From the IMG/VR virus record IMGVR_UViG_3300029610_000240: a DNA stretch of 64,000 nucleotides; one strand, given 5' to 3'. Positions 13,452 to 59,011 of the stretch are shown here, piece after piece. The notes below the pieces were generated by a model. That model saw only the letters and a list, made by a program, of their open reading frames with translations, was not told the DNA's origin and did no database searches. The DNA comes from a virus (lineage: Duplodnaviria; Heunggongvirae; Uroviricota; Caudoviricetes). The position numbers and the translations under genes are program-made. Numbering within the stretch: position 1 is the first letter of the stretch; each line of letters opens with the position of its first letter.

Positions 13452-13465
13452 AAGGGGATAAAACA

Positions 13466-13969: not shown

Positions 13970-13978
13970 AGGAGTTTA

Positions 13979-19772: not shown

Positions 19773-20044
19773 CCCCGACCTACAGTAATAACTGTTGAGG
19801 TCGGAGCTTGTAAAAGCTCATATTGACTAGCCTAAGTTCTTCGAGAACTACGTTGTTTATGTTATCACACCTGCGAATGATACCATAGTTTGCAGCCTTG
19901 TGTAGGCTCTGTAAAAGTTCTGTGAGGTAGGAACGGTCAACCTAGTATGTTCGATCACGACAAGCATTTACAACATTGGCGAAGGGTAACAAACTTTCAA
20001 AAGAAAGGGACAGCACTTGAGAGTAGCTGTCAAAGGTAAAAACT
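19773..20044 (+). ncRNA. IscB omega-RNA region
   Basis: About 270 nt of non-coding, visibly GC-richer and hairpin-rich sequence immediately 5' of iscB, which is the known position of IscB omega-RNAs. Confidence 0.65.
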
Positions 20045-23446: not shown

Positions 23447-23600
23447 CATCCTCTCCCATCTATAGAGGTGGGAGCTTCCCTAACCTCGGCAGGTTTGGTT
23501 CTCGTTCGATAGCACCAATGTGCTAAGCTTAAGCGAGCTAACCCCGTGTGTCCCACGGTTGTATTATGTGAAATTGTGGTTATGCAGTTACTATCCGCAT
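23447..23600 (-). ncRNA. TnpB omega-RNA region
   Basis: Sequence overlapping and extending past the 3' end of tnpB, GC-richer than its surroundings, ending at the element-end hairpin. Confidence 0.55.
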
Positions 23601-24698
23601 TCCCTCATTTCTGATATTGATCGCTGCATTTACATCTCTGTCGTGATGGATTCCACACTGCGGACAATCCCACTGCCTGAGTGCAAGATCCTTTGTTTTC
23701 GCATTCTTGTAACCACAGGCAGAACACATCTGACTGCTTGCAAAAAATCTGTCCACTTTCACAAGTTTTTTCCCTTGTTCCTCAAGTTTATACTTTAGAA
23801 AGGCTGTGAACATTCCCCATCCATTATCCGAAACGGATTTTCCCAATTTCAACGACCGAGACATTGCTTTCATATCCAGATCCTCTATACATACACAATC
23901 ATAGGCATTGGTTATCTGTCTTGACTGCTTATGCAGAAAATCTTTTCGCTGATTGGAAACTTTTTCGTGAAGTTTGGCTACCTTGATTCTCTGTTTCCTG
24001 CGATTGTTCGAACCTTTCTGCATCTTGGAAAGTCTGCGTTGTTCTCTTGCTAATCTTTTCTCTGCGTTCCGGTAATATCCTGGATATGCCGGTTCATTGC
24101 CATTACTGTCACGATATAATCCGTGCATGGAAAAGTCCAGACCTAAAAAACTGTGCATCTCCTTTTCTGGTATCTGATCTTCATACTCAAAAAGGATACT
24201 TGCATAGTATCTTCCGCCTGGTGTCTGGCTGATCGTCACTGATTTCAACCTGTATCCCTTTGGAACAGATCTGTGCTGCTTTAATCGGACTTGTCCGATC
24301 TTTGGCAGTTTCAGATACCCATCCGATATGGTGATGTTGCCATTGATACATATGGTTGAATAGCTGTTTTTATGATTCTTTTTTGATTTGAACCTTGGAA
24401 ATCCTGTTTTCGGCCGTTTGAAAAAGTTCTGAAATGCTGTATCAAGGTGTCGGAGTGATTGCTGTAAGGATATACTATCGACTTCCCGCAAAAATGCGTA
24501 TTCTTCCGTTTTCTTCATTTCAGCCATTTCTTTCGCACAGACAGTATATGTTATATTTGTCTTGTTCTTCTTATACTGCCTGATCCTTCGATTAAGCCAA
24601 TGGTTGTACACCATTCTGACACAGCCGAAAGTCCTGGCAAACAGAATCATCTGCTCATTATTGGGATATATTCTGAATTTATATGCTCTGTTTGCCAT
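23580..24698 (-). CDS. tnpB: TnpB RNA-guided nuclease (IS605 OrfB type)
   Basis: N-terminal AYKFRIYPN..Q, RuvC D (GLDFSMHG), E (CIEDLDMK), Zn finger CSACGY..CPQCG, RuvC-III HDRDVNAAINI. Confidence 0.9.
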   Translation of the reverse strand: MANRAYKFRIYPNNEQMILFARTFGCVRMVYNHWLNRRIRQYKKNKTNITYTVCAKEMAEMKKTEEYAFLREVDSISLQQSLRHLDTAFQNFFKRPKTGFPRFKSKKNHKNSYSTICINGNITISDGYLKLPKIGQVRLKQHRSVPKGYRLKSVTISQTPGGRYYASILFEYEDQIPEKEMHSFLGLDFSMHGLYRDSNGNEPAYPGYYRNAEKRLAREQRRLSKMQKGSNNRRKQRIKVAKLHEKVSNQRKDFLHKQSRQITNAYDCVCIEDLDMKAMSRSLKLGKSVSDNGWGMFTAFLKYKLEEQGKKLVKVDRFFASSQMCSACGYKNAKTKDLALRQWDCPQCGIHHDRDVNAAINIRNEGMRIVTA

Positions 24699-32730: not shown

Positions 32731-32802
32731 TGATGATGACTTAATTGATGATTTAAGACAAAGTTTTAAAAATATGTAACAGATATATGTAAAAACAAAT
32801 GG
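32731..32802 (+). CRISPR. guide module A: one spacer-like segment plus one repeat
   Basis: Repeat GTTTTAAAAATATGTAACAGATATATGTAAAAACAAATGG (32763..32802), preceded by TGATGATGACTTAATTGATGATTTAAGACAAA. Confidence 0.6.
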
Positions 32803-32804
32803 CA

Positions 32805-32872
32805 GTTACATAATGCGTAAGAATAAGAATGTATCGAATAAGTCTATATAAGTAGAATCTACCAGGTGGTAG
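32805..32872 (+). ncRNA. tracrRNA-like scaffold A
   Basis: Anti-repeat GTTACATAATGCGTAAGAAT pairs with ATATGTAAC of the repeat. Nexus AAGAATGTATCGAAT. Hairpins TCTA/TAGA and CTACC-AGG-TGGTAG (32859..32872). Confidence 0.65.
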
Positions 32873-32904
32873 AAAATATTAAAACTAACAGGAGATAATA
32901 TTTC

Positions 32905-36133: not shown

Positions 36134-36277
36134 GTTTTGTAATCGTGTAAAAGCACTTAAATATGCTGTAGAAGATGTTTTGTTACTGTGCAACGGAAAT
36201 ATGTCTAAATGATTTAATTTATTACTACTTTTTATTCCTTTGTTTTGTAACCGTGTAACGGAGACATGTCTAAATGG
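36134..36277 (+). CRISPR. guide module B mini-array (3 repeats)
   Basis: Repeats at 36134..36165 (decayed), 36177..36212 and 36242..36277 (GTTTTGTAACCGTGTAACGGAGACATGTCTAAATGG). Spacers are 11 nt and 29 nt (TTTAATTTATTACTACTTTTTATTCCTTT). Confidence 0.7.
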
Positions 36278-36356
36278 TCAAATTATTTTGCACGGTGCGT
36301 AAAAATAAGAAATTATCGAATAGGCTCGTTAAAACGAGAGCTGCCGTGTGGCAGTA
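36278..36356 (+). ncRNA. tracrRNA-like scaffold B
   Basis: TCAAATTATT linker. Anti-repeat TTGCACGGTGCGTAAAAAT pairs with ACCGTGTAA. Nexus AAGAAATTATCGAAT. Hairpins CTCGT-TAAA-ACGAG and CTGCC-GTGT-GGCAG. Confidence 0.75.
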
Positions 36357-36499
36357 AATCTAAGCTACATCAATTTCAAGATTATAATTTGGGAGGAGAA
36401 AATGTTTGGGAAAATTAATGTTTTTTATTTATTGTTGGCTATATATTTGTATTATTTGTTATATTCTTGCAGCCAAGAACAAGAAAGAAGGTGTAGTGT

Positions 36500-45959: not shown

Positions 45960-46126
45960 AATATTGTAATTTTGTAATAAATATATATTAATGTGGGGGC
46001 ATTACATAAATAATGAAATAAAAAGGCGTATTATATTGAAAAAAGTATCAAAAAGTGTTAGCATATTACATATAGACAAGAGAATTCAGAAAAACAAAAT
46101 GTGTATTTTATAAGGAGGATACTTAC

Positions 46127-49100
46127 GTGCAGAATGGATTTTTAGGAATAACTGTTAGTAGTGAACAGGTTGGTTGGGCAGTTACAAATCCCAAATATGA
46201 GTTAGAACGTGCATCTCGAAAAGATTTATGGGGTGTAAGGCTTTTTGATAAAGCAGAAACAGCGGAAGATCGAAGAATGTTCCGTACAAACAGACGATTA
46301 AATCAGAGAAAAAAGAACAGAATACATTATCTTAGAGATATTTTCCATGAGGAAGTAAATCAAAAAGATCCTAACTTTTTTCAGCAATTAGATGAAAGCA
46401 ATTTCTGTGAAGATGATCGTACTGTAGAGTTTAATTTTGATACTAATCTTTATAAGAATCAGTTTCCAACAGTGTATCATTTAAGAAAATATCTAATGGA
46501 AACAAAAGATAAACCAGATATTCGTCTGGTATACTTAGCTTTTTCAAAATTTATGAAAAATCGAGGACATTTCTTATACAAAGGAAATCTTGGAGAGGTT
46601 ATGGACTTTGAAAATTCCATGAAAGGCTTTTGTGAAAGTTTAGAGAAATTTAATATTGACTTCCCTACATTATCAGATGAACAGGTAAAAGAAGTCCGAG
46701 ATATCTTATGTGATCATAAAATTGCTAAAACTGTGAAAAAGAAAAACATCATTACTATTACAAAAGTAAAAAGTAAGACAGCAAAAGCATGGATTGGACT
46801 GTTTTGTGGTTGCAGCGTTCCTGTTAAAGTATTATTTCAGGATATCGATGAAGAAATTGTAACGGATCCAGAAAAAATCTCATTTGAAGATGCTTCTTAT
46901 GATGATTGTATTGCAAATATTGAAAAGGGTGTCGGTATTTATTATGAAGCTATTGTTTCTGCAAAGATGCTTTTTGACTGGTCTATCCTGAATGAAATTT
47001 TAGGTGACCATCAGTTATTAAGTGATGCAATGATCGCAGAATACAATAAGCATCATGATGATTTAAAGCGTTTACAGAAGATCATTAAAGGAACTGGCAG
47101 TAGAGAATTATATCAGGATATCTTTATTAATGATGTTTCTGGAAATTATGTATGCTACGTTGGTCATGCAAAAACAATGAGTAGTGCAGATCAGAAACAG
47201 TTTTATACATTTTTAAAAAATCGATTAAAAAATGTGAATGGTATTTCATCAGAAGATGCAGAATGGATTGATACAGAGATTAAAAACGGTACTTTACTAC
47301 CAAAACAGACAAAACGTGATAACAGTGTTATTCCGCATCAATTACAGTTAAGGGAATTTGAATTAATTCTTGATAACATGCAGGAAATGTATCCATTCTT
47401 AAAAGAAAACAGAGAAAAATTATTAAAAATCTTCAATTTCGTTATTCCTTATTATGTAGGTCCGCTAAAGGGCGTTGTAAGAAAAGGAGAGAGTACAAAC
47501 TGGATGGTGCCTAAAAAAGATGGTGTGATTCATCCATGGAATTTCGATGAAATGGTAGACAAAGAAGCGTCTGCGGAATGTTTTATTTCCCGAATGACAG
47601 GAAATTGTAGTTATTTATTTAATGAAAAAGTTCTTCCAAAGAATTCTCTTCTTTATGAGACATTTGAGGTATTAAATGAGCTAAATCCATTAAAGATCAA
47701 TGGAGAACCTATCAGCGTGGAATTAAAACAGAGAATTTATGAACAGCTTTTCTTGACAGGGAAAAAAGTTACAAAAAAATCTCTGACAAAATATCTTATC
47801 AAGAATGGCTATGACAAAGATATTGAATTATCAGGTATTGATAATGAATTTCACAGCAATCTAAAATCTCATATTGATTTTGAGGATTACGATAATCTAT
47901 CTGATGAAGAAGTTGAACAGATTATTCTTAGAATTACAGTATTTGAAGATAAGCAGCTGTTAAAAGATTATTTAAATCGCGAGTTTGTAAAGCTCTCTGA
48001 GGATGAGAGAAAACAGATTTGCTCATTATCTTATAAAGGATGGGGAAACTTATCAGAAATGCTATTAAACGGTATTACTGTAACAGATTCCAATGGTGTA
48101 GAAGTTTCTGTAATGGATATGCTGTGGAATACAAACTTAAATCTGATGCAGATCTTAAGTAAGAAATATGGATATAAAGCAGAAATCGAACATTACAATA
48201 AAGAACATGAAAAAACCATTTATAATCGTGAAGATTTGATGGATTATTTAAATATTCCACCGGCTCAGCGTAGGAAGGTAAATCAGCTGATTACGATAGT
48301 AAAATCTCTCAAAAAGACATATGGAGTTCCAAATAAGATTTTCTTCAAAATAAGCAGAGAACATCAGGATGATCCAAAGAGAACTTCATCCAGAAAAGAA
48401 CAGCTAAAATATTTATACAAATCCTTAAAATCAGAAGATGAAAAACATCTTATGAAAGAGCTTGATGAATTGAACGATCATGAATTATCCAATGATAAAG
48501 TTTATCTTTATTTTCTACAGAAAGGACGCTGCATTTATTCTGGCAAGAAATTAAATCTTTCAAGATTAAGAAAATCTAATTATCAGAATGATATTGACTA
48601 CATTTATCCATTATCTGCAGTAAATGATCGTTCTATGAATAATAAGGTATTAACGGGAATCCAGGAGAATCGAGCAGACAAGTATACCTATTTTCCAGTT
48701 GATTCAGAAATTCAGAAAAAAATGAAGGGATTTTGGATGGAACTGGTTCTGCAGGGATTTATGACAAAGGAGAAATACTTCCGATTATCCAGAGAAAATG
48801 ATTTTTCAAAGAGCGAACTTGTTAGCTTTATTGAACGTGAAATTTCAGATAATCAGCAAAGTGGAAGAATGATTGCTTCTGTATTACAGTATTATTTCCC
48901 TGAATCAAAGATTGTATTTGTAAAAGAAAAGCTGATTTCTTCCTTTAAGAGGGATTTCCATTTAATTAGTAGTTATGGTCACAATCATTTACAAGCTGCA
49001 AAAGATGCTTATATTACGATTGTAGTTGGAAATGTATATCATACAAAATTTACAATGGACCCAGCAATCTATTTTAAGAATCATAAGAGAAAAGATTATG

Positions 49101-50065
49101 ATCTGAACCGATTATTCTTAGAAAATATCAGCAGAGATGGACAGATTGCATGGGAAAGTGGTCCATATGGGTCAATTCAGACGGTTCGAAAAGAATATGC
49201 TCAAAACCATATTGCTGTTACAAAAAGAGTCGTGGAAGTAAAAGGCGGCTTATTTAAGCAGATGCCATTAAAAAAAGGACATGGCGAATATCCATTAAAA
49301 ACCAATGATCCTAGATTTGGCAATATCGCACAGTATGGAGGGTATACGAATGTCACAGGTTCCTATTTTGTATTAGTAGAATCAATGGAGAAAGGGAAAA
49401 AACGTATTTCTTTAGAATATGTTCCAGTATATCTTCATGAGCGTTTAGAGGATGATCCTGGACATAAACTGTTAAAAGAATATCTGGTTGATCACAGAAA
49501 ACTTAATCATCCAAAGATTTTACTTGCAAAAGTAAGAAAAAACTCATTACTTAAGATTGACGGTTTTTATTATCGTTTAAATGGTCGAAGTGGAAATGCT
49601 CTTATCCTTACAAATGCAGTGGAATTGATCATGGATGACTGGCAGACAAAAACAGCAAACAAGATTTCTGGATACATGAAACGCAGAGCTATTGATAAGA
49701 AAGCAAGGGTTTATCAAAATGAATTCCATATTCAGGAATTAGAACAGCTTTATGATTTTTATTTAGATAAATTAGAGAATGGTGTTTATAAAAATCGTAA
49801 GAATAATCAGGCTGAATTAATTCACAACGAAAAAGAACAGTTTATGGAACTCAAGACAGAAGATCAGTGTGTATTATTGACTGAGATTAAAAAGCTTTTT
49901 GTATGTTCTCCAATGCAGGCAGACCTTACATTGATTGGTGGCAGCAAACACACAGGAATGATTGCTATGTCAAGCAATGTTACAAAAGCAGATTTTGCAG
50001 TCATTGCGGAAGATCCTTTAGGACTTAGAAACAAAGTAATTTATTCTCATAAAGGTGAGAAGTAA
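46127..50065 (+). CDS. cas9: Cas9 homologue (type II-A-like size) with substituted RuvC and HNH catalytic residues
   Basis: GTG start 7 nt after AAGGAGGA. Conserved: bridge helix RRMFRTNRRLNQRKKNRIHYLRDIF, FPTVYHLRKYL, NRGHFLYKG, IPHQLQL, IPYYVGPL, PWNFDEMVDKEASAECFISRMT, YKGWGNLS. Catalytic columns: LGITVSSEQVGWAV (D10 is T), IFFKISREHQ (E762 is K), DIDYIYPLS (H840 is Y), QAAKDAYITIVVG (H983 is A, D986 kept). Confidence 0.9.
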   Translation: MQNGFLGITVSSEQVGWAVTNPKYELERASRKDLWGVRLFDKAETAEDRRMFRTNRRLNQRKKNRIHYLRDIFHEEVNQKDPNFFQQLDESNFCEDDRTVEFNFDTNLYKNQFPTVYHLRKYLMETKDKPDIRLVYLAFSKFMKNRGHFLYKGNLGEVMDFENSMKGFCESLEKFNIDFPTLSDEQVKEVRDILCDHKIAKTVKKKNIITITKVKSKTAKAWIGLFCGCSVPVKVLFQDIDEEIVTDPEKISFEDASYDDCIANIEKGVGIYYEAIVSAKMLFDWSILNEILGDHQLLSDAMIAEYNKHHDDLKRLQKIIKGTGSRELYQDIFINDVSGNYVCYVGHAKTMSSADQKQFYTFLKNRLKNVNGISSEDAEWIDTEIKNGTLLPKQTKRDNSVIPHQLQLREFELILDNMQEMYPFLKENREKLLKIFNFVIPYYVGPLKGVVRKGESTNWMVPKKDGVIHPWNFDEMVDKEASAECFISRMTGNCSYLFNEKVLPKNSLLYETFEVLNELNPLKINGEPISVELKQRIYEQLFLTGKKVTKKSLTKYLIKNGYDKDIELSGIDNEFHSNLKSHIDFEDYDNLSDEEVEQIILRITVFEDKQLLKDYLNREFVKLSEDERKQICSLSYKGWGNLSEMLLNGITVTDSNGVEVSVMDMLWNTNLNLMQILSKKYGYKAEIEHYNKEHEKTIYNREDLMDYLNIPPAQRRKVNQLITIVKSLKKTYGVPNKIFFKISREHQDDPKRTSSRKEQLKYLYKSLKSEDEKHLMKELDELNDHELSNDKVYLYFLQKGRCIYSGKKLNLSRLRKSNYQNDIDYIYPLSAVNDRSMNNKVLTGIQENRADKYTYFPVDSEIQKKMKGFWMELVLQGFMTKEKYFRLSRENDFSKSELVSFIEREISDNQQSGRMIASVLQYYFPESKIVFVKEKLISSFKRDFHLISSYGHNHLQAAKDAYITIVVGNVYHTKFTMDPAIYFKNHKRKDYDLNRLFLENISRDGQIAWESGPYGSIQTVRKEYAQNHIAVTKRVVEVKGGLFKQMPLKKGHGEYPLKTNDPRFGNIAQYGGYTNVTGSYFVLVESMEKGKKRISLEYVPVYLHERLEDDPGHKLLKEYLVDHRKLNHPKILLAKVRKNSLLKIDGFYYRLNGRSGNALILTNAVELIMDDWQTKTANKISGYMKRRAIDKKARVYQNEFHIQELEQLYDFYLDKLENGVYKNRKNNQAELIHNEKEQFMELKTEDQCVLLTEIKKLFVCSPMQADLTLIGGSKHTGMIAMSSNVTKADFAVIAEDPLGLRNKVIYSHKGEK

Positions 50066-50106
50066 GTTTTCATATTTGTTCGGAAAATTCATAATCATAT
50101 CGAACG

Positions 50107-50259
50107 GCTTTGGAACTGCGTAGAACATGATATGTCTTATGGCTAAAAGAATTACAGGTGCATATTTTGAACTGTGTAAAACATGGCATATGGGAGAATT
50201 GGCAACGACTGGAACAGAACACAGTTTTGAAACTGTATAAAACATGACATGTCTTATGG
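50107..50259 (+). CRISPR. guide module C mini-array (3 repeats), starting 42 nt after the cas9 stop
   Basis: Repeats at 50107..50142 (6 mismatches), 50164..50193 (30 nt, decayed) and 50224..50259 (GTTTTGAAACTGTATAAAACATGACATGTCTTATGG). Spacers: 21 nt CTAAAAGAATTACAGGTGCAT and 30 nt GAGAATTGGCAACGACTGGAACAGAACACA. Confidence 0.75.
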
Positions 50260-50336
50260 TTCAAATTATTTATACAGTACGTGAAAATAAGAAATTATCG
50301 AATAAACTCGTTTAGACGAGAACTGCTAGAGGCAGT
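50260..50336 (+). ncRNA. tracrRNA-like scaffold C
   Basis: Anti-repeat TTTATACAGTACGTGAAAAT gives a 10-bp perfect pairing with ACTGTATAAA. Nexus AAGAAATTATCGAAT. Hairpins CTCGT-TTAG-ACGAG and CTGC-TAGAG-GCAG (50323..50335). Confidence 0.8.
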
Positions 50337-50352
50337 AATTGCAGAAAATGTC

Positions 50353-50385
50353 ATGAACCCCAAGCGACTTCGTCGGCCGGGGGTT
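50353..50385 (+). terminator. GC-rich hairpin after module C
   Basis: AACCCC..CGAC-TTC-GTCG..GGGGTT nested stem followed by a short T run. Confidence 0.45.
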
Positions 50386-50448
50386 TACGCACCAATTTGA
50401 TAATATTTCTAATCATATATTACCTTATATGATTAATGGAGAAAATAG

Positions 50449-50595
50449 ATGTTTCAAGTAAAAAATAAAGAAACTGGGCAAGAATATACCGTATATGCTG
50501 TCGGGGATGAATATCTGACAAAATTTCTGATTTATGAAGATGGACATTGGAAATGGCAGACTATAGATGATTTTGTTCCAGTGATTGTAGATTAA
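50449..50595 (+). CDS. 48-aa hypothetical protein
   Basis: ATG behind GGAGAAAATAG. Product MFQVKNKETGQEYTVYAVGDEYLTKFLIYEDGHWKWQTIDDFVPVIVD. Below the ORF-track cut-off. Confidence 0.4.
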   Translation: MFQVKNKETGQEYTVYAVGDEYLTKFLIYEDGHWKWQTIDDFVPVIVD

Positions 50596-50612
50596 GAAAG
50601 CGAGAAATTCAC

Positions 50613-50957
50613 ATGAAGATTACAAGAACGATTAAATTTAAAGAATATATCCTCGGATATTTAGAAAAATTAGAGGTTCATGAAGTTCGACGCATTGAAA
50701 AAGCCGGACGATTAAGCCGTGACATTATCAAAGAGGAATCTGAAAAATGCGGACACAAATTAATGATTCTTGATACGATTGAAAAAGAAAGACGTTATGA
50801 ATGTTCATTAGAAGATTTCTTATCCGTTGCAAGAGAGATTCCACTAAAAAATCAGGAGACTGTTAATACAGAAGAAAAAAATGTTCAGGAAGATAATTCA
50901 GAGGATTCTAAGTCTAAGTTAGGCGATTCTGACTGTGCCCCTTGGATTGAAGATTAA
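50613..50957 (+). CDS. hypothetical protein
   Basis: 114-aa ORF lying between guide modules C and D. Confidence 0.5.
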   Translation: MKITRTIKFKEYILGYLEKLEVHEVRRIEKAGRLSRDIIKEESEKCGHKLMILDTIEKERRYECSLEDFLSVAREIPLKNQETVNTEEKNVQEDNSEDSKSKLGDSDCAPWIED

Positions 50958-50961
50958 TGTT

Positions 50962-51117
50962 ATTTTGAGAAATGATTGCAAATGTGATCGTAGCGTACCT
51001 TACTTCACAGCTTAGTTTTGGAACTATGTAAAATCAAATGATTGCAAATGGGCAGAGAGAAAATTTGAAAAATTGTCTGTGTTTTGGAACTATGTAAAAT
51101 CAAATGATTGCAAATGG
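50962..51117 (+). CRISPR. guide module D mini-array (3 repeats)
   Basis: Repeats at 50962..50985 (internally deleted), 51015..51051 and 51081..51117 (GTTTTGGAACTATGTAAAATCAAATGATTGCAAATGG). Spacers: GATCGTAGCGTACCTTACTTCACAGCTTA and GCAGAGAGAAAATTTGAAAAATTGTCTGT. Confidence 0.8.
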
Positions 51118-51193
51118 TCAAAGTAATTGCATGGCGTGTAAAAATAAGAATTTATCGAAATAATTTGCTCCGGCGAAATCTGCAAGATGCAGA
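51118..51193 (+). ncRNA. tracrRNA-like scaffold D
   Basis: TCAAAGTAA linker. Anti-repeat TTGCATGGCGTGTAAAAAT pairs with CTATGTAA through two G:U. Nexus AAGAATTTATCGAAAT. Hairpins TTTGC-TCCG-GCGAA and TCTGC-AAGA-TGCAGA. Confidence 0.75.
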
Positions 51194-51197
51194 AATC

Positions 51198-51265
51198 AAG
51201 CTGATCGATGCTTTACATATTTATCTATTTCAATATTTCTTCAACCATATACATTGATCAGCTTT
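51198..51265 (+). terminator. long-loop inverted repeat with AGCTGATC core (possible terminator)
   Basis: AAGCTGATCGATG pairs with CATTGATCAGCTT (13 bp, one G:U) around a 42-nt loop. A related element lies at 54054..54131. Confidence 0.4.
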
Positions 51266-51290
51266 AATAAAAAGAATTAAAATTACGAAA

Positions 51291-51445
51291 ATAAAATTGA
51301 ATGATTCCAATGGATAGTCGAAAAAGAATTGGATAGTCGACGGGTTTTAGAATAGTGTAAAATTGAATGATTCTAAGGGTTAGATACTCCACTAGATAGC
51401 AAAGTACTTGTTTTAGAATAGTGTAAAATTAAATGATTCTAAGGG
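51291..51445 (+). CRISPR. guide module E mini-array (3 repeats)
   Basis: Repeats at 51292..51313 (3' half only), 51344..51379 (GTTTTAGAATAGTGTAAAATTGAATGATTCTAAGGG) and 51410..51445. Spacers: ATAGTCGAAAAAGAATTGGATAGTCGACGG and TTAGATACTCCACTAGATAGCAAAGTACTT. Confidence 0.8.
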
Positions 51446-51528
51446 GTCAAATAGATTCTATACAATGCGTGAAAATAAGAAACTTATCGAACAAACCTGT
51501 GTAGGAAACAGGAACTGCCGAGGGCAGT
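51446..51528 (+). ncRNA. tracrRNA-like scaffold E
   Basis: GTCAAATAGAT linker, anti-repeat TCTATACAATGCGTGAAAAT, nexus AAGAAACTTATCGAAC. Hairpins CCTGT-GTAGGAA-ACAGG and CTGCC-GAG-GGCAG (51515..51527). Confidence 0.75.
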
Positions 51529-51823
51529 AAAAATAAAAAGCATATTTTTATTATGTTTTATTTTATGATGAAGAGGTGGATGATGGTTCTATCTCTGTTT
51601 TTGAGAAAATGGATGCATTGCAAAATGCAACAATCTTAGAAGTACAAATACATATTGATGACTTAAAAGATAAATTGGAAGAAGTAAAATTTACTCTTAA
51701 AATATCAGGTTTGTATTTGAAGAAGATAATTTTATGGATTCTTATTATAAATCTTATACGTTACCGATTGTATATCACAAAAACTATTTATTAAGTATTA
51801 ACAATGATAAGGAATAACAATAA

Positions 51824-53755
51824 ATGGAAATAGATTACAGAAAAGAATTAAATAAGAGTCAATATGAAGCTGTTACAACGACAGAAGGACCAGTCCTAAT
51901 CCTTGCCGGTGCCGGAACTGGCAAAACTCGTTGTATGGTATATCGTGTGGCATATCTGATTGAAAAAGGCGTGTCACCCAATAATATCTTATTATTGACC
52001 TTTACAAATAAAGCAGCAAATGAAATGAAGCAAAGGGCAGCAGATATGCTTGATGAACGATGTAGTCAAATTACTGCATGTACATATCATTCATTCTGTG
52101 CAAAGATGCTTCGCAAATATTCACAACTGATTGGAATTCAATCAGATTATACAATTATTGATCCGGGAGATTGTGCAGATATCATATCGATCATCGAAAC
52201 AGAACACGGTATGGATAAAGTAAAAGATTTTCCAAGATCATCTCAACTGGTATCAGCACATAGCAAAGCCTTAAATACGAATCAGTCATTAGAGGATACT
52301 TTGTTTGATATGCTCGGTAAATGGAAGTATATGGAAATCGAAAGATTCATTCCAGATATAAAGAAAATCTTAGCGGATTATCAATCATACAAAAAACAAA
52401 ACAACATGATGGATTATGATGATTTGCTAATCAATTTTATATCTGTATTGAAAAGAAACCCTTCTATAAAGAATAAATTAGCTGATATTTATCAGTATAT
52501 TATGATCGACGAATATCAGGATTCTAATTATTTACAGGAAAAGATTATTTTTATGTTACGTGAAAAGAATCGTAACTTAGCAGTGGTAGGTGATGATTAC
52601 CAATGCATCTATGGATTTAGAGGAAGTATGGTAGAAAATATCATTAATTTTCCACAAAAGATGTCCGGATGTAAAGTTGTTTACTTAACACAGAATTATC
52701 GCAGCAATCAAGAGATCATGGATTTATCCAATATTGTTATGAAAAAACATTCACTGGAAGGTTTTTTTAAAAAGCTTGTCGCAACTCATGTGGCCAATAT
52801 TCAGCCATTGCTAGTTCGATCAGAGGACGAGGGCGAAGAAGCTTCTTATATTTTAAATAAGATTATGGCATTACATGATGAAGAAGAGATTCCGTATCAT
52901 GAAATTTGTGTTCTTGAAAGAAGTTCTTATCATTCTGTAAGACTAGAAGCACTTTTAAATAAAATGAAAATCCCATATGACAAATATGGTGGAATGAAGT
53001 TTTTTGATTATGATCATATCAAAAACTTCTTATGCTTTTTGCGATGTCAGATAAATCCACATGATGAAATTGCGTGGTTTCGACTATTAAAGTTATTTGA
53101 TGGTATTGGAAATGTTTATGCCAGAAATATCGCAGCAACATGTAAAACTCTTGGATTAGAGGGACTTGTTCAACACAAATACATAAAAAGAAAATTTCAG
53201 CCGGATCTTGAAAATTTAAAGAGTTTTATTGAAAAGCTTAATGATCAAGATTTTCAGATCGAATTGCAAAGCATTAAATCATTTTATTCACGTTTAATGG
53301 ACATTACATTAATGCTGATGAAAACATCGGAGAAGAAACGTAGGGAGCTTGCTAGAGCAAATAAACAAGCGGTCCGCGATTTTGATACACTGATTGAAAT
53401 GGCAGATGGATATGATTCTCCAGTGACATTTCTGGAAGAAATAATGCTTGAAGCCAGTCCTCAGAAAGAGGAAGAGGAAGATCGAATGGTTATATCTACA
53501 ATTCATTCCGCAAAAGGCTTAGAGTTTCACTCTGTTTTTGTTATGAACTGCGTAGATACAATGTTTCCATCTACAGATAAAGATCAGATTGGAACAGTAG
53601 AAGATAACGAAGAGTTGAGATGCTTCTATGTGGCAATAACACGGGCAAAAGAACGATTATTTTTAATGGCACCGAAATATATAGCCAAATTTGGATGTGT
53701 TGAAGAGGGAATTATCTCCCATTTTATTAGTGATGTTTTTCAAGTAAAGGAGTAA
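51824..53755 (+). CDS. UvrD/PcrA-type SF1 DNA helicase
   Basis: Walker A AGAGTGKT, motif II IMIDEYQDSN, QNYRSNQEI, late STIHSAKGLEF and FYVAITRAKERL. Confidence 0.85.
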   Translation: MEIDYRKELNKSQYEAVTTTEGPVLILAGAGTGKTRCMVYRVAYLIEKGVSPNNILLLTFTNKAANEMKQRAADMLDERCSQITACTYHSFCAKMLRKYSQLIGIQSDYTIIDPGDCADIISIIETEHGMDKVKDFPRSSQLVSAHSKALNTNQSLEDTLFDMLGKWKYMEIERFIPDIKKILADYQSYKKQNNMMDYDDLLINFISVLKRNPSIKNKLADIYQYIMIDEYQDSNYLQEKIIFMLREKNRNLAVVGDDYQCIYGFRGSMVENIINFPQKMSGCKVVYLTQNYRSNQEIMDLSNIVMKKHSLEGFFKKLVATHVANIQPLLVRSEDEGEEASYILNKIMALHDEEEIPYHEICVLERSSYHSVRLEALLNKMKIPYDKYGGMKFFDYDHIKNFLCFLRCQINPHDEIAWFRLLKLFDGIGNVYARNIAATCKTLGLEGLVQHKYIKRKFQPDLENLKSFIEKLNDQDFQIELQSIKSFYSRLMDITLMLMKTSEKKRRELARANKQAVRDFDTLIEMADGYDSPVTFLEEIMLEASPQKEEEEDRMVISTIHSAKGLEFHSVFVMNCVDTMFPSTDKDQIGTVEDNEELRCFYVAITRAKERLFLMAPKYIAKFGCVEEGIISHFISDVFQVKE

Positions 53756-53791
53756 TTTATAGTGAAATGCTTAAATTATGTTGTCAATGTG

Positions 53792-53965
53792 GATTTGAAT
53801 CCATGTAAAAATGTAAAGCAAATGATTCCAAATGGCAATCTTCTCGAATTGTCGTGTAGGCAAAGTTTTGAAACCATGTAAAAAAATGATTCCAAATGGG
53901 TATGCATTGGTGTTTGAAGCGTTTGTGTGTTTTGGAACCATGTAAAAGCAAATGATTCCAAATGG
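53792..53965 (+). CRISPR. guide module F mini-array (3 repeats)
   Basis: Repeats at 53792..53835 (internal duplication), 53865..53899 (2-nt deletion) and 53929..53965 (GTTTTGGAACCATGTAAAAGCAAATGATTCCAAATGG). Spacers: CAATCTTCTCGAATTGTCGTGTAGGCAAA and GTATGCATTGGTGTTTGAAGCGTTTGTGT. Confidence 0.8.
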
Positions 53966-54043
53966 TTAAAAGCAGATTACATGGTGTGTCAAAATAAGAA
54001 CTTATCGAATAGATCTATATAAATGGAATCTGCCAGGTGGCAG
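53966..54043 (+). ncRNA. tracrRNA-like scaffold F
   Basis: Anti-repeat TTACATGGTGTGTCAAAAT gives a 9-bp perfect pairing with ACCATGTAA. Nexus AAGAACTTATCGAAT. Hairpin 2 CTGCC-AGGT-GGCAG (54030..54043). Hairpin 1 is weak and resembles that of scaffold A. Confidence 0.75.
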
Positions 54044-54053
54044 AAAAAAACTG

Positions 54054-54131
54054 AAAAAGCTGATCAATAATAACTGTTGTTACCATAATATTAATTTATG
54101 TTTTTGTATTTTGTCTATTGATCAGCTTTTT
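54054..54131 (+). terminator. 16-bp perfect long-loop inverted repeat with AGCTGATC core
   Basis: AAAAAGCTGATCAATA pairs perfectly with TATTGATCAGCTTTTT around a 46-nt loop. Confidence 0.5.
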
Positions 54132-54133
54132 GC

Positions 54134-55411
54134 ATGAAAATGAAAGTTATAAATATGGCAATGAAGAAAGTCGGTGATGATAAATTGAGAAGAAAAGTAG
54201 TCAGTTTTTTACTTGTTACACTTATGATGGCAACGATCACTCCTGTACATGCAGATGAGGTGTCAGAACCAACAACTGCTGCGACAGAAGTTACAACAAC
54301 AGAAACGAAGCCGACTACGACAGAAAAAAAAGAAACAACTCATCATAAGGAAAAAACAGTAAAAAAAGATAAGAAAACAAAAAAGAAAAATACTAAAAAA
54401 GATGGGAAAAAGAAAAGTAAACAAAAAGAAAAATCTAAAAAAAAGGAAAACAAAAAATCAACAATTCCGATGCCTAAACGGGCTGTAAAGAAAAAAGGTT
54501 GTGATACTGTACAAAAGAAGATTGTAAAAATGCAATCAAAGATTAAAAAGTTGCAGAAAGAACAAAAAAATATCCGAAAAGAGATCAAAAAAGAAAATAA
54601 TAAAAAAGAAGCACTGCAGCGATTTTATCAGCAATATCCTACAGAGCGTGAAGCAACTATGAAACTGCGAGGACAAAAGATTACACCTCTTACTAAGATT
54701 TCAGAGGAAGACGATGCATTAAGAAATAGATTATTCAGTTTAGCTAATACATTTCATGACGATCAACTACGTAAAATTGCCTCTGAGTACGTCTTTGGCG
54801 TAAGAGATCTTAATTTTGAAGACCTGTTAAACGAGGATGATACCATTGACCTTAATACATATTTAAAAGGCAAATATATTGCTCCAACGCAGAATATGCA
54901 GATAGGAATTAAAAATAAGGATCAAGAAATTCAAAAATTAAAGAAACAGATCAAAGAGGAAAAGAAAACCAGATTTTTTGATCCGAAAAACGTAAATTCT
55001 ATTAGCAATATTACAGTTGATGATGCTAAAAAGATGTTGTCTGGAACGCAATTATATCCAGAAGCAGAAGCTTTTGTTAAAGCAGAAAGAATTCATCATG
55101 TAAATGCAGTCTTTTTAATGGGAATTGCTGCACATGAAAGTGCCTGGGGAACAAGCCGGCGTGCCAGAGAAGATAATAATTTAACTGGATATGGAGTTTA
55201 CTCAGATAGTGCAAAGGGCATCAATAAGACAAGCAAAGAAGAAGGATTATTAGCCACCGCTGAGACATTGCACGAACGATACTTAACCCCTGGAGGCAGC
55301 TATTACGAAGGAACTTCCGTTGCTGATGTAAATAAACATTATTGTGTCGGAAATGAATGGGCCGGAGCGGTAGTTGGTTATGCTTATCAATTAATGAATA
55401 AACTAAATTAG
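54134..55411 (+). CDS. secreted Lys-rich protein with C-terminal GH73-type glucosaminidase domain
   Basis: Signal peptide and K/E-rich low-complexity linker. AVFLMGIAAHESAWGTSRRAREDNNLTGYGV is the FlgJ/GH73 catalytic region. Confidence 0.75.
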   Translation: MKMKVINMAMKKVGDDKLRRKVVSFLLVTLMMATITPVHADEVSEPTTAATEVTTTETKPTTTEKKETTHHKEKTVKKDKKTKKKNTKKDGKKKSKQKEKSKKKENKKSTIPMPKRAVKKKGCDTVQKKIVKMQSKIKKLQKEQKNIRKEIKKENNKKEALQRFYQQYPTEREATMKLRGQKITPLTKISEEDDALRNRLFSLANTFHDDQLRKIASEYVFGVRDLNFEDLLNEDDTIDLNTYLKGKYIAPTQNMQIGIKNKDQEIQKLKKQIKEEKKTRFFDPKNVNSISNITVDDAKKMLSGTQLYPEAEAFVKAERIHHVNAVFLMGIAAHESAWGTSRRAREDNNLTGYGVYSDSAKGINKTSKEEGLLATAETLHERYLTPGGSYYEGTSVADVNKHYCVGNEWAGAVVGYAYQLMNKLN

Positions 55412-55543
55412 ATATCATCAAAGAGGTTTTGGTTAACTAAAGGTTGATTATCGGTATATCATTGTTCGGTGTCTGTAGACAGCATTTTTTCAAATCTATA
55501 GTTGTTATAAAATAAGAGACACTTTCATGTATAGTGGAGTTTA

Positions 55544-55570
55544 GTTTCAGAAGTTTATAAAAACAGATAA
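55544..55570 (+). CRISPR. guide module G: single divergent repeat
   Basis: GTTTCAGAAGTTTATAAAAACAGATAA, preceded by the candidate guide GAGACACTTTCATGTATAGTGGAGTTTA. Confidence 0.5.
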
Positions 55571-55580
55571 CTATTAATGA

Positions 55581-55658
55581 TTATCTGTTTCATGGATTGT
55601 GTAAAAATAAGCAAATTAGCGAATATGCTCGTTGAAACGAGAGCTGTTAGATAACAGC
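55581..55658 (+). ncRNA. tracrRNA-like scaffold G
   Basis: TTATCTGTTT pairs perfectly with AAACAGATAA across a 10-nt loop. GATTGTGTAAAAAT, nexus variant AAGCAAATTAGCGAAT. Hairpins CTCGT-TGAA-ACGAG and GCTGTTA-GA-TAACAGC. Confidence 0.6.
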
Positions 55659-55710
55659 TAAAAATGTAACTATATAAATTAATTTGTAAATTATAGGGAG
55701 GACTATTTTA

Positions 55711-55866
55711 GTGAAACACGGTAAAGTTCCAACAAGAAATCAAAAAGAACTTATGTTAAAAAATAATCTTAATCCGAAAGAATGGCTGGTTGTAAAGAAA
55801 ATGGCGGATGGATTTGAGATTGTTAATAGAGAAAATGAAGCAGATCGTAAATTTCTGTATTGTTAA
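55711..55866 (+). CDS. 51-aa small protein
   Basis: GTG start behind GGGAGGA. Product MKHGKVPTRNQKELMLKNNLNPKEWLVVKK.. resembles small conserved proteins of Firmicutes mobile elements, recalled from memory. Below the ORF-track cut-off. Confidence 0.45.
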   Translation: MKHGKVPTRNQKELMLKNNLNPKEWLVVKKMADGFEIVNRENEADRKFLYC

Positions 55867-55875
55867 GGTGAAATA

Positions 55876-56091
55876 ATGATGGATATTTACACAAGATTAT
55901 TGATGATGGATATTATGATATCGGCAGTAGCTATTATGGTAAATATCTTAGAAAATTGTCCGATTAACGGTAAAATACACAATATTTCAAGAATTTTAAT
56001 CATATCTAGTATTGCTGCAGACATTATCTTACTTTTAGGAATTGTCAATACGTTCATCTCATACAGTATCCTGTATTCTTATTTTAAATAA
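55876..56091 (+). CDS. small membrane protein
   Basis: 71 aa with two hydrophobic helices. Its stop overlaps the first, partial repeat of module H. Confidence 0.45.
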   Translation: MMDIYTRLLMMDIMISAVAIMVNILENCPINGKIHNISRILIISSIAADIILLLGIVNTFISYSILYSYFK

Positions 56092-56094
56092 GAT

Positions 56095-56249
56095 ACAGAA
56101 GAATCATTGTCGATGTTAAACATATTATGTGAAACATTATTGTCAGGCTTTAGAAGTCTATAAAACAGAATCATTGTCAATGAGATCAAATTCTTTATGA
56201 CAACGCAATACAGCTTTAGAAGTCTATAAAACAGAATCATTGTCAATGG
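56095..56249 (+). CRISPR. guide module H mini-array (3 repeats)
   Basis: Repeats at 56095..56115 (3' half only), 56147..56183 and 56213..56249 (GCTTTAGAAGTCTATAAAACAGAATCATTGTCAATGG). Spacers: TTAAACATATTATGTGAAACATTATTGTCAG and GATCAAATTCTTTATGACAACGCAATACA. Confidence 0.8.
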
Positions 56250-56325
56250 TCAAATAAGCAGACTGCGTAAAAATAAGAATTTTATCGATATTGCTCGTGT
56301 AGTCGAGAACTGCCAAGTGGCAGCA
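56250..56325 (+). ncRNA. tracrRNA-like scaffold H
   Basis: TCAAATAAG linker, anti-repeat CAGACTGCGTAAAAAT, nexus AAGAATTTTATCGAT. Hairpins CTCG-TGTAGT-CGAG and CTGCC-AAGT-GGCAG (56310..56323). The next gene's RBS follows 18 nt later. Confidence 0.75.
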
Positions 56326-56352
56326 ACATTTATAATAAAAAGGAGGAATTAT

Positions 56353-57006
56353 ATGCGAAAACAAGTTTTTGCAACGATTGGTTGTGCTATCTTTTTACTG
56401 ATCGTAGTAGGTTTCCTGATGATGGCATATTCTTCTTATACAAAACATCAAGAGGAAATTGCTGAACAAAAATTAATAAAGCAGGAAAGAAAAGAATCAC
56501 GAAAAACACTTCAATCATCAGAAGAAAGGGAATGGAATCTGGACTGCCTGTGGGAGCATGTTATCGAAATTGATGGTACAGAAATTGAAGTACCAATTAA
56601 ATACAATGATCTGATCAAGACACTTGGAAACAAAGTGAAAGAAGCTAAAGATAAAAAAATCATGCTACAAAATGGACAGGTTTTATGGCTGAATTGTACA
56701 AAAGATGAAAAAGACTCTATGAATAATGGAAAAGATAAAGCAATGGTTTATGGTATATCTACACAACAGGACGCTAAAGATTCTTGTGTTACAATTCAGA
56801 AAATCAAAACTGGAATGTCTTATGATAAATTAAAGGAATATTATGAGACTCCAGTTACGAAAGATGATTCCCAAAGTATTTCTGTACTGCAATATGCTGA
56901 TCCGAAATCTGATTTAGATATCACACAGCAGAATGTGACTGTTTATCTGGATAACAATACAGTGGTTGGATTAGGTATATATTATGACGGAAGTAAGGAG
57001 GAATAG
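56353..57006 (+). CDS. membrane-anchored hypothetical protein
   Basis: ATG at 56353 behind AAAGGAGGA. One N-terminal TM helix. Confidence 0.55.
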   Translation: MRKQVFATIGCAIFLLIVVGFLMMAYSSYTKHQEEIAEQKLIKQERKESRKTLQSSEEREWNLDCLWEHVIEIDGTEIEVPIKYNDLIKTLGNKVKEAKDKKIMLQNGQVLWLNCTKDEKDSMNNGKDKAMVYGISTQQDAKDSCVTIQKIKTGMSYDKLKEYYETPVTKDDSQSISVLQYADPKSDLDITQQNVTVYLDNNTVVGLGIYYDGSKEE

Positions 57007-57769: not shown

Positions 57770-59011
57770 TTATTTTATTTTCATGATCTCGGCCATTAGC
57801 CACTCTGGTTTTCGTTTTGTGTAAGTAGCTTCTGTGATATCGTTGATCTTGTGACCCATCATATATTTTAATGCATATTCATCTACTTTATCTCTTTTTG
57901 CCATCGTGGAAAACTGAATCCTTGGATCATGAGCTCTGTGATCTGGATTGAGCTCTAATTTCTTAACAATCTTTTCGAATCGATGTCTATATTTATCATA
58001 CGTCATTTTTAAGCTACTTCGGTGTGTTTTTGTATCAGTGCAGTTGATTAAATAATCACTTCCAAGATTTATTGCTTCCTGGTATCGATGCTTGACTAGA
58101 TCACGAATCCGTGGATGGATTGGAACCAAGCGATCTTTACCTGCGTCAGTCTTCATACCGCCGATAAAAAACCAATTTTCCAGATCTACATTTTTTAATT
58201 CAATTAGACCCAATTCTTGTGGTCGCCATCCAGAGTAGCATTGGATCAGAATCACATCCACATAATCAGTATCATACAAATGATCCCATAATTTTTTTAT
58301 TTCTTCATCCGTAAAATCAATATGGTCCTTCTTCGCTTCTTTAACATCTTTAATAACATCATCAGACAAATTAAAGGTCCTTGCATAATTCTTGTCTACT
58401 AATTCATACTCTAGCGCATAATCCAACATTAAGTTGAATAGAGATTTTATCTTTGTCTTTGTAGTAGGAGATGCGTGTTTTTCTTTACCATCGACTACAT
58501 ACGTTCCATCTTCCATACAACCTTTAATATGTCGGGCACGTAAATCTTTTGCACGCATATCATAAACAGCAGAGCAGTAGTTCCAGGCAGATTTAATTGT
58601 ACGTTCACTTGAAGGACTTGACAGGGATTCAAAATATTTATCAGTCCACTTTTCGTATAATTGCTCGACTGTCAGATCAGAGTCAAGATCATACGGATTT
58701 TTATGATATTCAAGTAATGCAGCGTAAGCATCATTATAGGTTTTGAAATATGTTTCTGGTTTCAATGATTTATAAATAGGTTTTCCATAAAAATTTTTTC
58801 CAACACAGACTAATGCACGAAAAGGCTTTCTAAGATTTTGATTTTTTAATTCGGATATAGTGCCAAATCCATTTGGAAGACGTTTTCGTTTATTAGTTTT
58901 TCTTTGTTGTTGTTTAATAACTTTTGTATCTAGAGGATAACCGCAGTGAGGACAAGTTATTGCCTTATCACTTACCTGCAATTGACATTCTGGACATTTG
59001 ATCAGTGCCAT
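57770..59011 (-). CDS. tyrosine recombinase/integrase with N-terminal zinc ribbon
   Basis: CPECQ..CPHCG at the N-terminus. C-terminal catalytic pattern RAHDPRIQF..MMGHKINDITEATYTKR (R..HxxR..Y). Confidence 0.85.
   Translation of the reverse strand: MALIKCPECQLQVSDKAITCPHCGYPLDTKVIKQQQRKTNKRKRLPNGFGTISELKNQNLRKPFRALVCVGKNFYGKPIYKSLKPETYFKTYNDAYAALLEYHKNPYDLDSDLTVEQLYEKWTDKYFESLSSPSSERTIKSAWNYCSAVYDMRAKDLRARHIKGCMEDGTYVVDGKEKHASPTTKTKIKSLFNLMLDYALEYELVDKNYARTFNLSDDVIKDVKEAKKDHIDFTDEEIKKLWDHLYDTDYVDVILIQCYSGWRPQELGLIELKNVDLENWFFIGGMKTDAGKDRLVPIHPRIRDLVKHRYQEAINLGSDYLINCTDTKTHRSSLKMTYDKYRHRFEKIVKKLELNPDHRAHDPRIQFSTMAKRDKVDEYALKYMMGHKINDITEATYTKRKPEWLMAEIMKIK

Follow-up and report, generated by a model that had tools for sequence, protein, structure and literature searches.

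The IMG/VR record IMGVR_UViG_3300029610_000240, filed as a virus of the class Caudoviricetes, carries a gene for a Cas9-family protein and a series of short modules built from repeats and spacers of the kind found in CRISPR loci. The subject of this analysis is two of these modules, D (50962-51195) and E (51292-51530), which lie downstream of cas9 in the 64,000-nucleotide (nt) stretch of DNA that was analysed (the window; Table 1). Both are non-coding mini-arrays in which 36-nt repeats and 30-nt spacers alternate with a period of 66 nt, and no open reading frame (ORF) of at least 70 amino acids (aa) overlaps positions 50958-51575. A first-pass annotation of the same DNA had placed D and E by reference to the helicase gene that follows them. 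Their key neighbour is the Cas9 protein, which has lost nuclease residues, rather than the helicase. Related loci are denoted below by L numbers and Cas9 proteins or protein clusters by P numbers.

The repeat of module D, GTTTTGGAACTATGTAAAATCAAATGATTGCAAATG, is found at 51015 and 51081, and that of module E, GTTTTAGAATAGTGTAAAATT(G/A)AATGATTCTAAGGG, at 51344 and 51410. The two variants are 60-72% alike, in agreement with the earlier description of D and E as two complete modules with different repeat variants. Each module opens with a 5'-truncated repeat (50970-50984 in D and 51292-51313 in E). A degenerate 20-nt version of the repeat head has nine matches in the window, where 0.46 would be expected, and nine or more were found in none of 100 shuffles. 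The two modules had been described as separated only by a long-loop hairpin. The hairpin is indeed present, but D's 58-nt tail (51138-51195), which resembles a trans-activating CRISPR RNA (tracrRNA), and a 27-nt AT-rich stretch also lie between the D array and E. The direct duplication reported in the first spacer of E exists as well: GGATAGTCGA occurs at 51312-51321 and again at 51331-51340. The first GG of this 10-nt duplication is part of the truncated repeat, and 8 nt of it fall inside spacer E1.

Guide-RNA architecture

What are the tails of these modules? The Rfam family RAGATH-30 (RF03055) has eight matches in the window, all on the + strand and each located after repeats of a module-specific variant; they start at 32817, 36299, 50281, 51138 (D), 51469 (E), 53988, 55601, and 56267. 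With 71.9 bits for D and 64.9 bits for E, the tails of both modules pass the gathering score of 59.5 over model positions 1-59 of 59 and are thus members of the family. RF03055 is typed in Rfam as 'Gene; sRNA', and its model comprises a 59-nt nexus plus two hairpins, without an anti-repeat, repeats, or any link to Cas9. The Rfam tracrRNA model (RF02348, gathering score 70 bits), which was built from other Cas9 lineages, gave only a weak match, to module C (22.8 bits, E = 3).

When the segment from terminal repeat to tail is folded, the minimum-energy structures of modules B, C, E, and F resemble a single-guide RNA (sgRNA). The predicted fold consists of a lower stem (GUUUU:AAAAU), a bulge, an upper stem in which repeat positions 10-17 pair with a segment ~10 nt 3' of the repeat, an unpaired AAUAAG nexus, and two hairpins. 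This prediction can be compared with the pattern of sequence change among modules. For this, 22 distinct terminal units, drawn from the window as well as from related loci, were aligned with MAFFT, blind to structure, and the pairs were then counted. Pairing was found in 95.8% of cells, against 38-51% when the 3' partners were slid by 1-3 columns, and helices 1 and 2 of the alignment are 96% and 91% paired. Changes on both sides have occurred in 14 of the 23 pairs, and five of the eight repeat:anti-repeat pairs show compensatory changes; at columns 12/54, for example, the pair is AU in 11 sequences, GC in six, CG in three, and UG in two. The observed covariation score was reached by none of 500 shuffles. 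The structure was picked after some of the sequences had been viewed, which makes the slid control somewhat flattering but leaves the count of double changes unaffected.

Because the repeat:anti-repeat stem covaries across the 22 modules, each module resembles a natural sgRNA. The earlier proposal that D and E are guide units is upheld on two grounds, the pairing of each repeat with its own anti-repeat and the perfect foreign protospacers of two of the four spacers (see below).

A canonical relative offers a comparison. Locus L024 of a Clostridium sp., with the gene order cas9-cas1-cas2-csn2, has a homologous repeat, GTTTGAGAATGATGTAAAAATGTATGGTACTCAAAC. Its tracrRNA is separate and lies 5' of cas9; the anti-repeat is full-length and the nexus, CAAATAAAAATTTATTC, is similar, but the RAGATH-30 model fails to detect this tracrRNA. 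To judge from their sequences, the modules are type II-A arrays in which the tracrRNA has apparently been relocated directly behind the array on the same strand, and in which the anti-repeat has been shortened to the part that is kept in engineered sgRNAs. The arrays are short, with one or two spacers in the window and up to six in the relatives L005 and L035. Modules B and C start (at 36134-36210 and 50104-50190, respectively) with strongly degenerate repeats and irregular short 'spacers' of 11-22 nt, as would be expected if the old, promoter-proximal end decays.

The Cas9 protein

Is the Cas9 protein encoded next to these modules able to cut DNA? Its assignment to the family is clear: there are Pfam matches to Cas9_REC (1.5e-138), Cas9_PI (2e-57), the bridge helix (Cas9-BH), and HNH_4, together with a PDB Cas9 match of 722 bits, a PADLOC Cas9 match of 1.3e-209, and 455 bits against SpCas9 structures. 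In alignments to canonical relatives and SpCas9 chains, however, four residues that serve catalysis are replaced; of the catalytic set, D10, E762, H983, and D986 belong to RuvC, and H840 and N863 to HNH. D10 has become T (GLDLGT to GITVSS), E762 has become K (IEMARE to FKISRE), H840 has become Y (DVDHIVPQS to DIDYIYPLS), and H983 has become A (HHAHDAY to LQAAKDAY). Relatives with 89% and 71-74% identity also carry these substitutions, and the next-nearest Cas9 proteins, which are ~42% identical, are catalytically intact. The replacements predict a Cas9 that is nuclease-dead in both domains.

Other copies have gone further. Sixteen protein clusters (P0003-P0018) of ~1155 aa (1151-1159) are 96-97% identical over the aligned part and have no HNH Pfam domain; two of these, P0008 and P0013, were aligned, and both have a deletion of the HNH region. 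At the P0008 locus (L003/L004; L003 10001-13471), the same six modules as in the window lie downstream, and the locus is otherwise near-identical to the window. The HNH-less variant is found on contigs of up to 111 kb.

The ratio of nonsynonymous to synonymous substitution rates (dN/dS) of cas9 is 0.06-0.10, with dS up to ~2, which indicates that the protein is maintained by strong purifying selection. The cluster at 90% identity whose representative, P0001, is 100% identical to the window protein holds 2780 sequences; one of its members, WP_044924278.1, named "Cas9" of Anaerostipes hadrus by NCBI, is present on at least 1000 contigs.

Spacer targets

A search for targets of the four D and E spacers, as had been proposed, was successful for D1 and E2; none was found for D2 and E1. 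The D1 protospacer is present in four IMG/VR viral contigs, with 30/30 matching positions in L011 and 29/30 in L012-L014. Its flanks are not repeats, and the 3' flank reads AGAAGTTG. The site lies within a 119-aa MazF-like ORF (L014 5456-5815, - strand), near a phage exonuclease and a DNA polymerase. The E2 protospacer matches at 31/31 positions in nine human-gut metagenome contigs, again with non-repeat flanks and with the 3' flank GAAAATAC. This site falls in a 334-aa gene (L021 3057-4061) in the conjugation module of another Tn916-like element, which has FtsK-like and replication-initiator genes on one side and VirB4-like and NlpC/P60 genes on the other. PADLOC identifies the encoded protein as TIR-TM (1.9e-74), and no homologue of the gene is present in the window. 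Positions shared by the two 3' flanks hint at a protospacer-adjacent motif (PAM) of about NNAA, from two sites only. Both targets are toxin- or defence-type genes, which, with n = 2, hints at counter-defence.

Wider searches gave no further targets. An exact-match scan of viral contigs returned nothing for E2, D2, E1, C2, F2, and the newest spacer of L005, and one of species-representative genomes returned nothing for E1 and D2. A BLAST search of 12 concatenated spacers against plasmid and phage collections gave chance-level matches only (E >=2), and comparing 59 spacers from all retrieved arrays with all retrieved loci revealed no new targets. Self-regulation through self-targeting was considered and rejected: none of 15 window spacers matches any other part of the 64-kb window at ~70% identity or more beyond AT-rich noise.

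Spacer turnover

The spacers of these modules change between closely related elements. Over 1.7 kb, nearly the sole difference between L003 and the window is that L003 lacks D2 and one repeat. L033, whose Cas9 is 99.7% identical, and L029 share one D1 spacer that is not the window's, and their D2 spacers differ from each other. In L033, E1 is kept with three changes and two other spacers replace E2. The same polarity is seen in modules B, C, D, E, and H, where strains have the distal spacer in common but differ in the tracr-proximal one. This suggests that new spacers are added beside the terminal repeat.

What might direct them there? A nearly invariant motif, GGTCAAAT, is found directly 3' of the terminal repeat in all modules (e.g., at 51117-51124 and 51446-51453). 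It sits in an unpaired loop, so its conservation is not explained by pairing. Its reverse complement, ATTTGACC, resembles ATTTGAG, the sequence also found at the leader end of L024. In type II-A systems, ATTTGAG is the ancestral motif of the leader end and is needed for integration (PMC5382924). By this resemblance, the GGTCAAAT motif would direct integration by Cas1-Cas2 supplied in trans.

At the opposite end, the truncated first repeat and the conserved E1 look like the decayed trailer end of an array, and E1 does not look like a working guide. A second internal duplication at an old module end, besides that in E1, is present in L008 (8616-8659), where the sole 'spacer' of a single-repeat module is a tandem duplication containing ATCCATGGTTTTTT ~2.5 times.

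Origin of the D/E pair and the intervening hairpin

Have D and E arisen from one another by duplication? Their terminal units are 58% identical. In the module phylogeny that the first-pass annotation had proposed, here built from 22 modules, D groups with L026 and L035a from other contigs, and E groups with L005, L008, and L035b, which are modules after cas9 in the lineage with 74% identity. Positional orthologues of both, with the same intervening hairpin and near-identical repeats and flanks, exist in L003, L029, and L033. As the orthologous positions have been kept in these three loci, D and E form an old and stable pair and are not recent copies of each other. The identity of 58%, the separate branches, and the positional orthologues together sustain the earlier argument against a simple segmental duplication.

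The hairpin between the modules (51198-51264) has a 13-bp stem, a 41-nt loop, and a folding energy of -15.6 kcal/mol (z = -3.1). A second copy is located at 54059-54126, after module F; by chance, none would be expected. The 3' arm of the first copy contains the -35-like TTGATC of a promoter-like site ahead of E. The hairpin may act as a terminator (of D), bind a protein, or be left over from an insertion. Inverted arms of the form (A)AGCTGATCAAT / ATTGATCAGCTT(T) are conserved after several modules, namely at the two window positions, in L005 (~6085-6250), and in L008 (~8790-8965). The loop between the arms is 41-48 nt long in the window as against ~170-190 nt in the 74% lineage (L005, L008), and a TTATTTCAATATTTTT stretch is common to both.

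Proposed mechanism and alternative explanations

The reading proposed here, to which a probability of about 0.62 is assigned, is that D and E belong to a set of eight or more guide-RNA genes serving a nuclease-dead Cas9 on a Tn916-like integrative and conjugative element (ICE), and that the complexes bind competing mobile elements without cleaving them. The + strand transcript of a module would fold as a natural sgRNA, with the newest spacer followed by the repeat:anti-repeat duplex, the nexus, and the two hairpins; the loop that closes the duplex would be formed by the 3' half of the repeat and the GGTCAAAT linker. Spacer-repeat units further upstream would pair in trans with tracr tails. Loaded Cas9 would bind PAM-flanked protospacers without cutting and interfere by occupancy, blocking transcription, replication, or transfer of rival mobile elements, or their defence and toxin genes. 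Adaptation proteins acting in trans would insert spacers at the tracr-proximal end, guided by the motif that resembles a leader end. Transcription, RNA processing, binding without cleavage, the biological effect, and the source of the adaptation proteins are all inferred in this scheme.

Why would cleavage be given up? A break in a resident prophage or ICE would be a break in the chromosome and would kill the ICE's own host cell, which may explain the loss. A more specific version can be offered tentatively: the locus would be a natural form of CRISPR interference on an ICE, in which a binding-only Cas9 with many native sgRNA genes, gaining spacers tracr-proximally through host adaptation proteins, silences TIR-TM and MazF-like genes of resident prophages and rival ICEs without breaking the shared chromosome.

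Several observations count against binding by a dead Cas9 with native guides. N863 and D986 are unchanged in the window Cas9, and P0020 is an exception among the related proteins in that the HNH histidine is retained. Targets are known for only two of the four D and E spacers and for none of the other spacers tried. The D1 and E2 protospacers both lie in coding-strand sense. For S. pyogenes dCas9 (the nuclease-dead form), this is the orientation in which RNA polymerase passes most easily. Because both spacers share it, a simple elongation roadblock is disfavoured, and the effect may instead lie in blocked replication or transfer or in some helper activity.

The eight promoter-like sites found in the region compare with 11 expected from shuffles and are thus not enriched, and there is no U-run after tail hairpin 2. 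In the type II-C system of Neisseria, a -10 element within each repeat starts each CRISPR RNA (crRNA). At positions 15-20, the repeats of D and E have a -10-like TAAAAT; those of C, G, and H have TATAAA, and those of B have no such element, in a region where the promoter scan is not above chance. Finally, by calculated duplex energy, a repeat often forms its most stable pair with an anti-repeat other than the cognate one. D pairs better with the anti-repeat of F, and E with that of B, in a comparison for which the H sequence was wrongly extracted. Insulation of the modules from one another (orthogonality) was therefore rejected as the reason for repeat divergence, and avoidance of recombination between nearby modules is a possible cause.

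Could the modules instead lead to the destruction of their targets by a nuclease provided in trans? In this scenario they would serve an active Cas9 of the host, or the dead Cas9 would recruit another nuclease or the UvrD-like helicase. A UvrD/GajB-like helicase adjoins the modules in this lineage, and helicase-assisted systems are known, e.g., type IV-A with DinG (PMC12669027). However, the L005 and L008 lineages keep Cas9 and modules without the helicase, which can thus be an accessory at most, and a conserved nuclease partner is not seen in the gene tables of relatives. Service to a host Cas9 fits poorly with the RAGATH-30 tail, which co-occurs with this Cas9 clade wherever both could be checked and whose model does not match the canonical relative's tracrRNA. 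Destruction in trans is accordingly judged unlikely. It is quite unlikely, too, that the locus is an anti-CRISPR decoy in which dead Cas9 and tracrRNA variants sequester the crRNAs of host type II-A systems and the spacers are incidental. An inactivated Cas9 on a mobile element beside a helicase recalls type II-C2 (PMC10910872), several different anti-repeats are present on one element, and pairing across modules is thermodynamically possible. Yet covariation links each anti-repeat to the repeat ~10 nt away in the same module, and the module spacers show turnover and matches to foreign elements, whereas arrays are missing from II-C2 loci. Moreover, the anti-repeat covers no more than positions 1-17 of the repeat, so that the duplex is weaker than the full-length one of L024, and it would be a poor competitor for host crRNA.

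The loss of catalytic residues, the deletion of HNH in some copies, the truncated or degenerate first repeats, and the lack of an adaptation module could also be seen as signs that a type II-A locus captured by the ICE is eroding and that the modules are functionless fragments. This is very improbable: the dN/dS of 0.06-0.10 holds over dS values of up to 2, intact ORFs of 1306-1312 aa are kept in at least five lineages, compensatory changes preserve the RNA helices, module positions are syntenic across lineages, and spacers differ between elements whose Cas9 proteins are 99.7% identical. Least credible of all is a role in guided integration or transfer, with dead Cas9 marking insertion sites for the ICE after the manner of CRISPR-associated transposons. 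Such a role would suit a nuclease-dead effector with very short arrays near the Xis/Int end of a mobile element and spacers that match other mobile elements, which CRISPR-associated transposons also target. Against it, genes like TnsB, TnsC, and TniQ were not found in the scanned ORFs, and recombination depends on a tyrosine integrase of Tn916 type together with Xis; the contigs also have different chromosomal neighbours, and no spacer matches the flanks.

Comparison with known systems

The locus shares much with canonical type II-A systems such as those of L024 and S. pyogenes. The Cas9 protein has REC, bridge-helix, and PI regions and is ~40-42% identical to canonical Lachnospiraceae and Clostridium proteins; the 36-nt repeat is homologous, spacers are 30 nt long, the protospacer is flanked on its 3' side, and the guide has the same order of lower stem, bulge, upper stem, nexus, and two hairpins. 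Unlike canonical type II-A, the catalytic residues are replaced or the HNH domain is deleted, no cas1, cas2, or csn2 was found, and the locus is carried by an ICE. It has at least eight dispersed mini-arrays, each with its own same-strand tracrRNA fused at the 3' end and a shortened anti-repeat, and new spacers are located at the 3' (tracr-proximal) end.

In the literature searched, one inactivated natural Cas9 is described, the phage II-C2 variant. This protein has an inactive RuvC and an active HNH domain, has no array, is encoded with an SNF2 helicase, and was proposed to sequester host crRNA (Altae-Tran et al. 2023, PMC10910872; Makarova et al. 2025, PMC12669027). The Cas9 of the window is likewise encoded on a mobile element, with RuvC inactivated, its own tracrRNA, and an adjacent helicase. 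It differs in that both domains are inactivated, as far as the sequence can tell, in its arrays with spacers matching mobile elements, in its II-A ancestry, in being carried by an ICE, and in having a helicase that is UvrD-like and dispensable.

A guide, a truncated duplex, and a tracr scaffold on one RNA (here predicted), combined with binding without cutting, are also features of engineered sgRNA/dCas9 and of tracr-L. The natural long tracrRNA of S. pyogenes, tracr-L, works with an active Cas9 as one regulatory RNA and, through a short match, targets the protein's own promoter (bioRxiv 10.1101/2020.05.21.102756). Unlike tracr-L, the predicted fused RNA ends a spacer-bearing array, has no self-target in the 64-kb window, and would serve a protein that is itself dead by sequence. 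Binding and transcriptional silencing without an effector nuclease are established for type IV-A (a Csf complex with DinG) and for type V-M Cas12m (PMC11013384; PMC12669027). Like the present locus, these systems are often found on mobile elements, often have no adaptation genes, and target plasmids and mobile elements. Their effectors, in contrast, are a class 1 complex or Cas12, and no Cas9-based counterpart was found in the literature searched.

That literature also contained no record of RAGATH-30, no link of this kind between a RAGATH motif and tracrRNA, and nothing on Anaerostipes together with Cas9 and tracrRNA; Weinberg et al. 2017 do not mention RAGATH-30 in the main text or the supplements examined. 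Likewise missing from the literature searched were any natural Cas9 that is fully nuclease-dead, one with arrays included, and array-tracrRNA fusions of this type, which is not proof that none has been described.

What would the proposed reading mean? The combination of dCas9 and an sgRNA is a laboratory invention. If the reading is correct, a widespread natural counterpart exists, and evolution has reached the ideas of dCas9 and sgRNA independently, in a common butyrate producer of the human gut. Type II would join type IV and some type V systems in showing interference without cleavage, and the orphan Rfam motif RAGATH-30 would gain a function. The locus would also offer a tractable case of mobile-element conflict in the gut, of ICE against phage and of ICE against ICE, and would pose a mechanistic puzzle, namely how spacers enter an array that has neither a leader on the transcribed side nor cas1-cas2 nearby. 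Compact binding-only Cas9 variants with native single guides, including the HNH-less ones, are potential tools.

The carrier element and its other genes

To judge from gene content, the carrier is a Tn916-like ICE of the gut bacterium Anaerostipes hadrus. In relatives, the gene order runs from a papain-like peptidase/lectin gene through ATLF, cas9, the modules, (UvrD), glucosaminidase, DUF6906, and a 217-aa ORF to a Tn916-type Xis and a tyrosine integrase, and it is this order that identifies the element as a Tn916-like ICE. A phage origin was rejected: megablast with 46000-56400 gave no match in phage and plasmid collections, PHROG matches are of cargo type, and relatives end in Tn916 Xis/Int. 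Genes for cas1, cas2, and csn2 are absent from the ~60 window ORFs scanned with Pfam or PHROGs and from the gene tables of relatives.

Table 1. Coordinates of the cas9 gene, the guide modules and their parts, and the adjacent helicase gene in the window.
Feature	Position	Strand	Evidence or remark
Module A, single repeat and tail	32763..32875	+	
Module B, 10 kb 5' of cas9	36134..36357	+	
Cas9-family protein, 1312 aa	46127..50065	+	Pfam, PDB, and PADLOC matches; residue mapping
Module C: degenerate repeats, 30-nt spacer, terminal repeat, tracrRNA-like tail; immediately past the cas9 stop	50104..50338	+	RAGATH-30 at 50281-50338; sgRNA-like fold
Module D first repeat, 5'-truncated (3' 15 nt of the repeat)	50970..50984	+	
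Spacer D1	50985..51014	+	MazF-like gene match in four IMG/VR viral contigs (30/30, 29/30)
Module D internal repeat	51015..51050	+	
Spacer D2, tracr-proximal, strain-specific	51051..51080	+	No target found
Module D terminal repeat	51081..51116	+	Pairing with the downstream anti-repeat at positions 1-5 and 10-17
Module D conserved GGTCAAAG linker and anti-repeat upper-stem strand (51127-51134)	51117..51137	+	Alignment, pair counts
Module D tracrRNA-like tail: lower-stem strand (51141-51145), nexus, two hairpins	51138..51195	+	Rfam RF03055 RAGATH-30, 71.9 bits
Long-loop hairpin between D and E	51198..51264	+	Arms AAGCTGATCGATG / CATTGATCAGCTT, conserved
Module E first repeat, 5'-truncated	51292..51313	+	
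Spacer E1 with internal GGATAGTCGA duplication	51314..51343	+	Conserved across strains; no target found
Module E internal repeat	51344..51379	+	
Spacer E2	51380..51409	+	31/31 match (preceding G counted) to TIR-TM gene, nine human-gut metagenome contigs
Module E terminal repeat	51410..51445	+	
Module E GGTCAAAT linker and anti-repeat upper-stem strand (51458-51465)	51446..51468	+	
Module E tracrRNA-like tail (RAGATH-30)	51469..51530	+	64.9 bits
UvrD/GajB-like SF1 helicase	51824..53755	+	Adjoins modules in this lineage
Module F, two spacers and tail, then hairpin 54059-54126	53795..54046	+	
Module G, single repeat and tail, one guide only	55544..55660	+	
Module H, two spacers and tail	56099..56326	+	

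Small conserved ORFs are interleaved with modules C, D, and E, at 50449-50598 (~48 aa), 50613-50957 (~114 aa), and 51576-51794 (~72 aa). The 114-aa and 72-aa ORFs, the two that were scanned, have no Pfam or PADLOC match, and the 48-aa ORF is retained in L001, a locus without D and E.

The sole integrase found in the window is a zinc-ribbon tyrosine recombinase (57770-59011, - strand). At the same position, L001 and L003 have a Tn916-type Xis and an Integrase_DNA/Phage_integrase gene on the + strand. As different integrase genes occupy one position, the ends of the element are mosaic.

The cargo of the window includes an LPXTG adhesin, a restriction-modification system, and genes of IS200/TnpB type. 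Defence cargo is found at 12249-16359, where an AbiLi-like AAA ATPase lies beside a methyltransferase and restriction-endonuclease pair. A HEARO RNA (RF02033, 112 bits) at 19765-19994 lies directly 5' of a 424-aa HNH-endonuclease ORF (20045-21319); by sequence, this is the arrangement of IscB with its omega RNA, and it would represent a second RNA-guided system on the element. An IS200-type Y1 transposase and two TnpB-like ORFs (phrog_506) are encoded at 7056-7493, 17408-19036, and 23580-24698 (- strand), so that the element carries several genes of OMEGA type.

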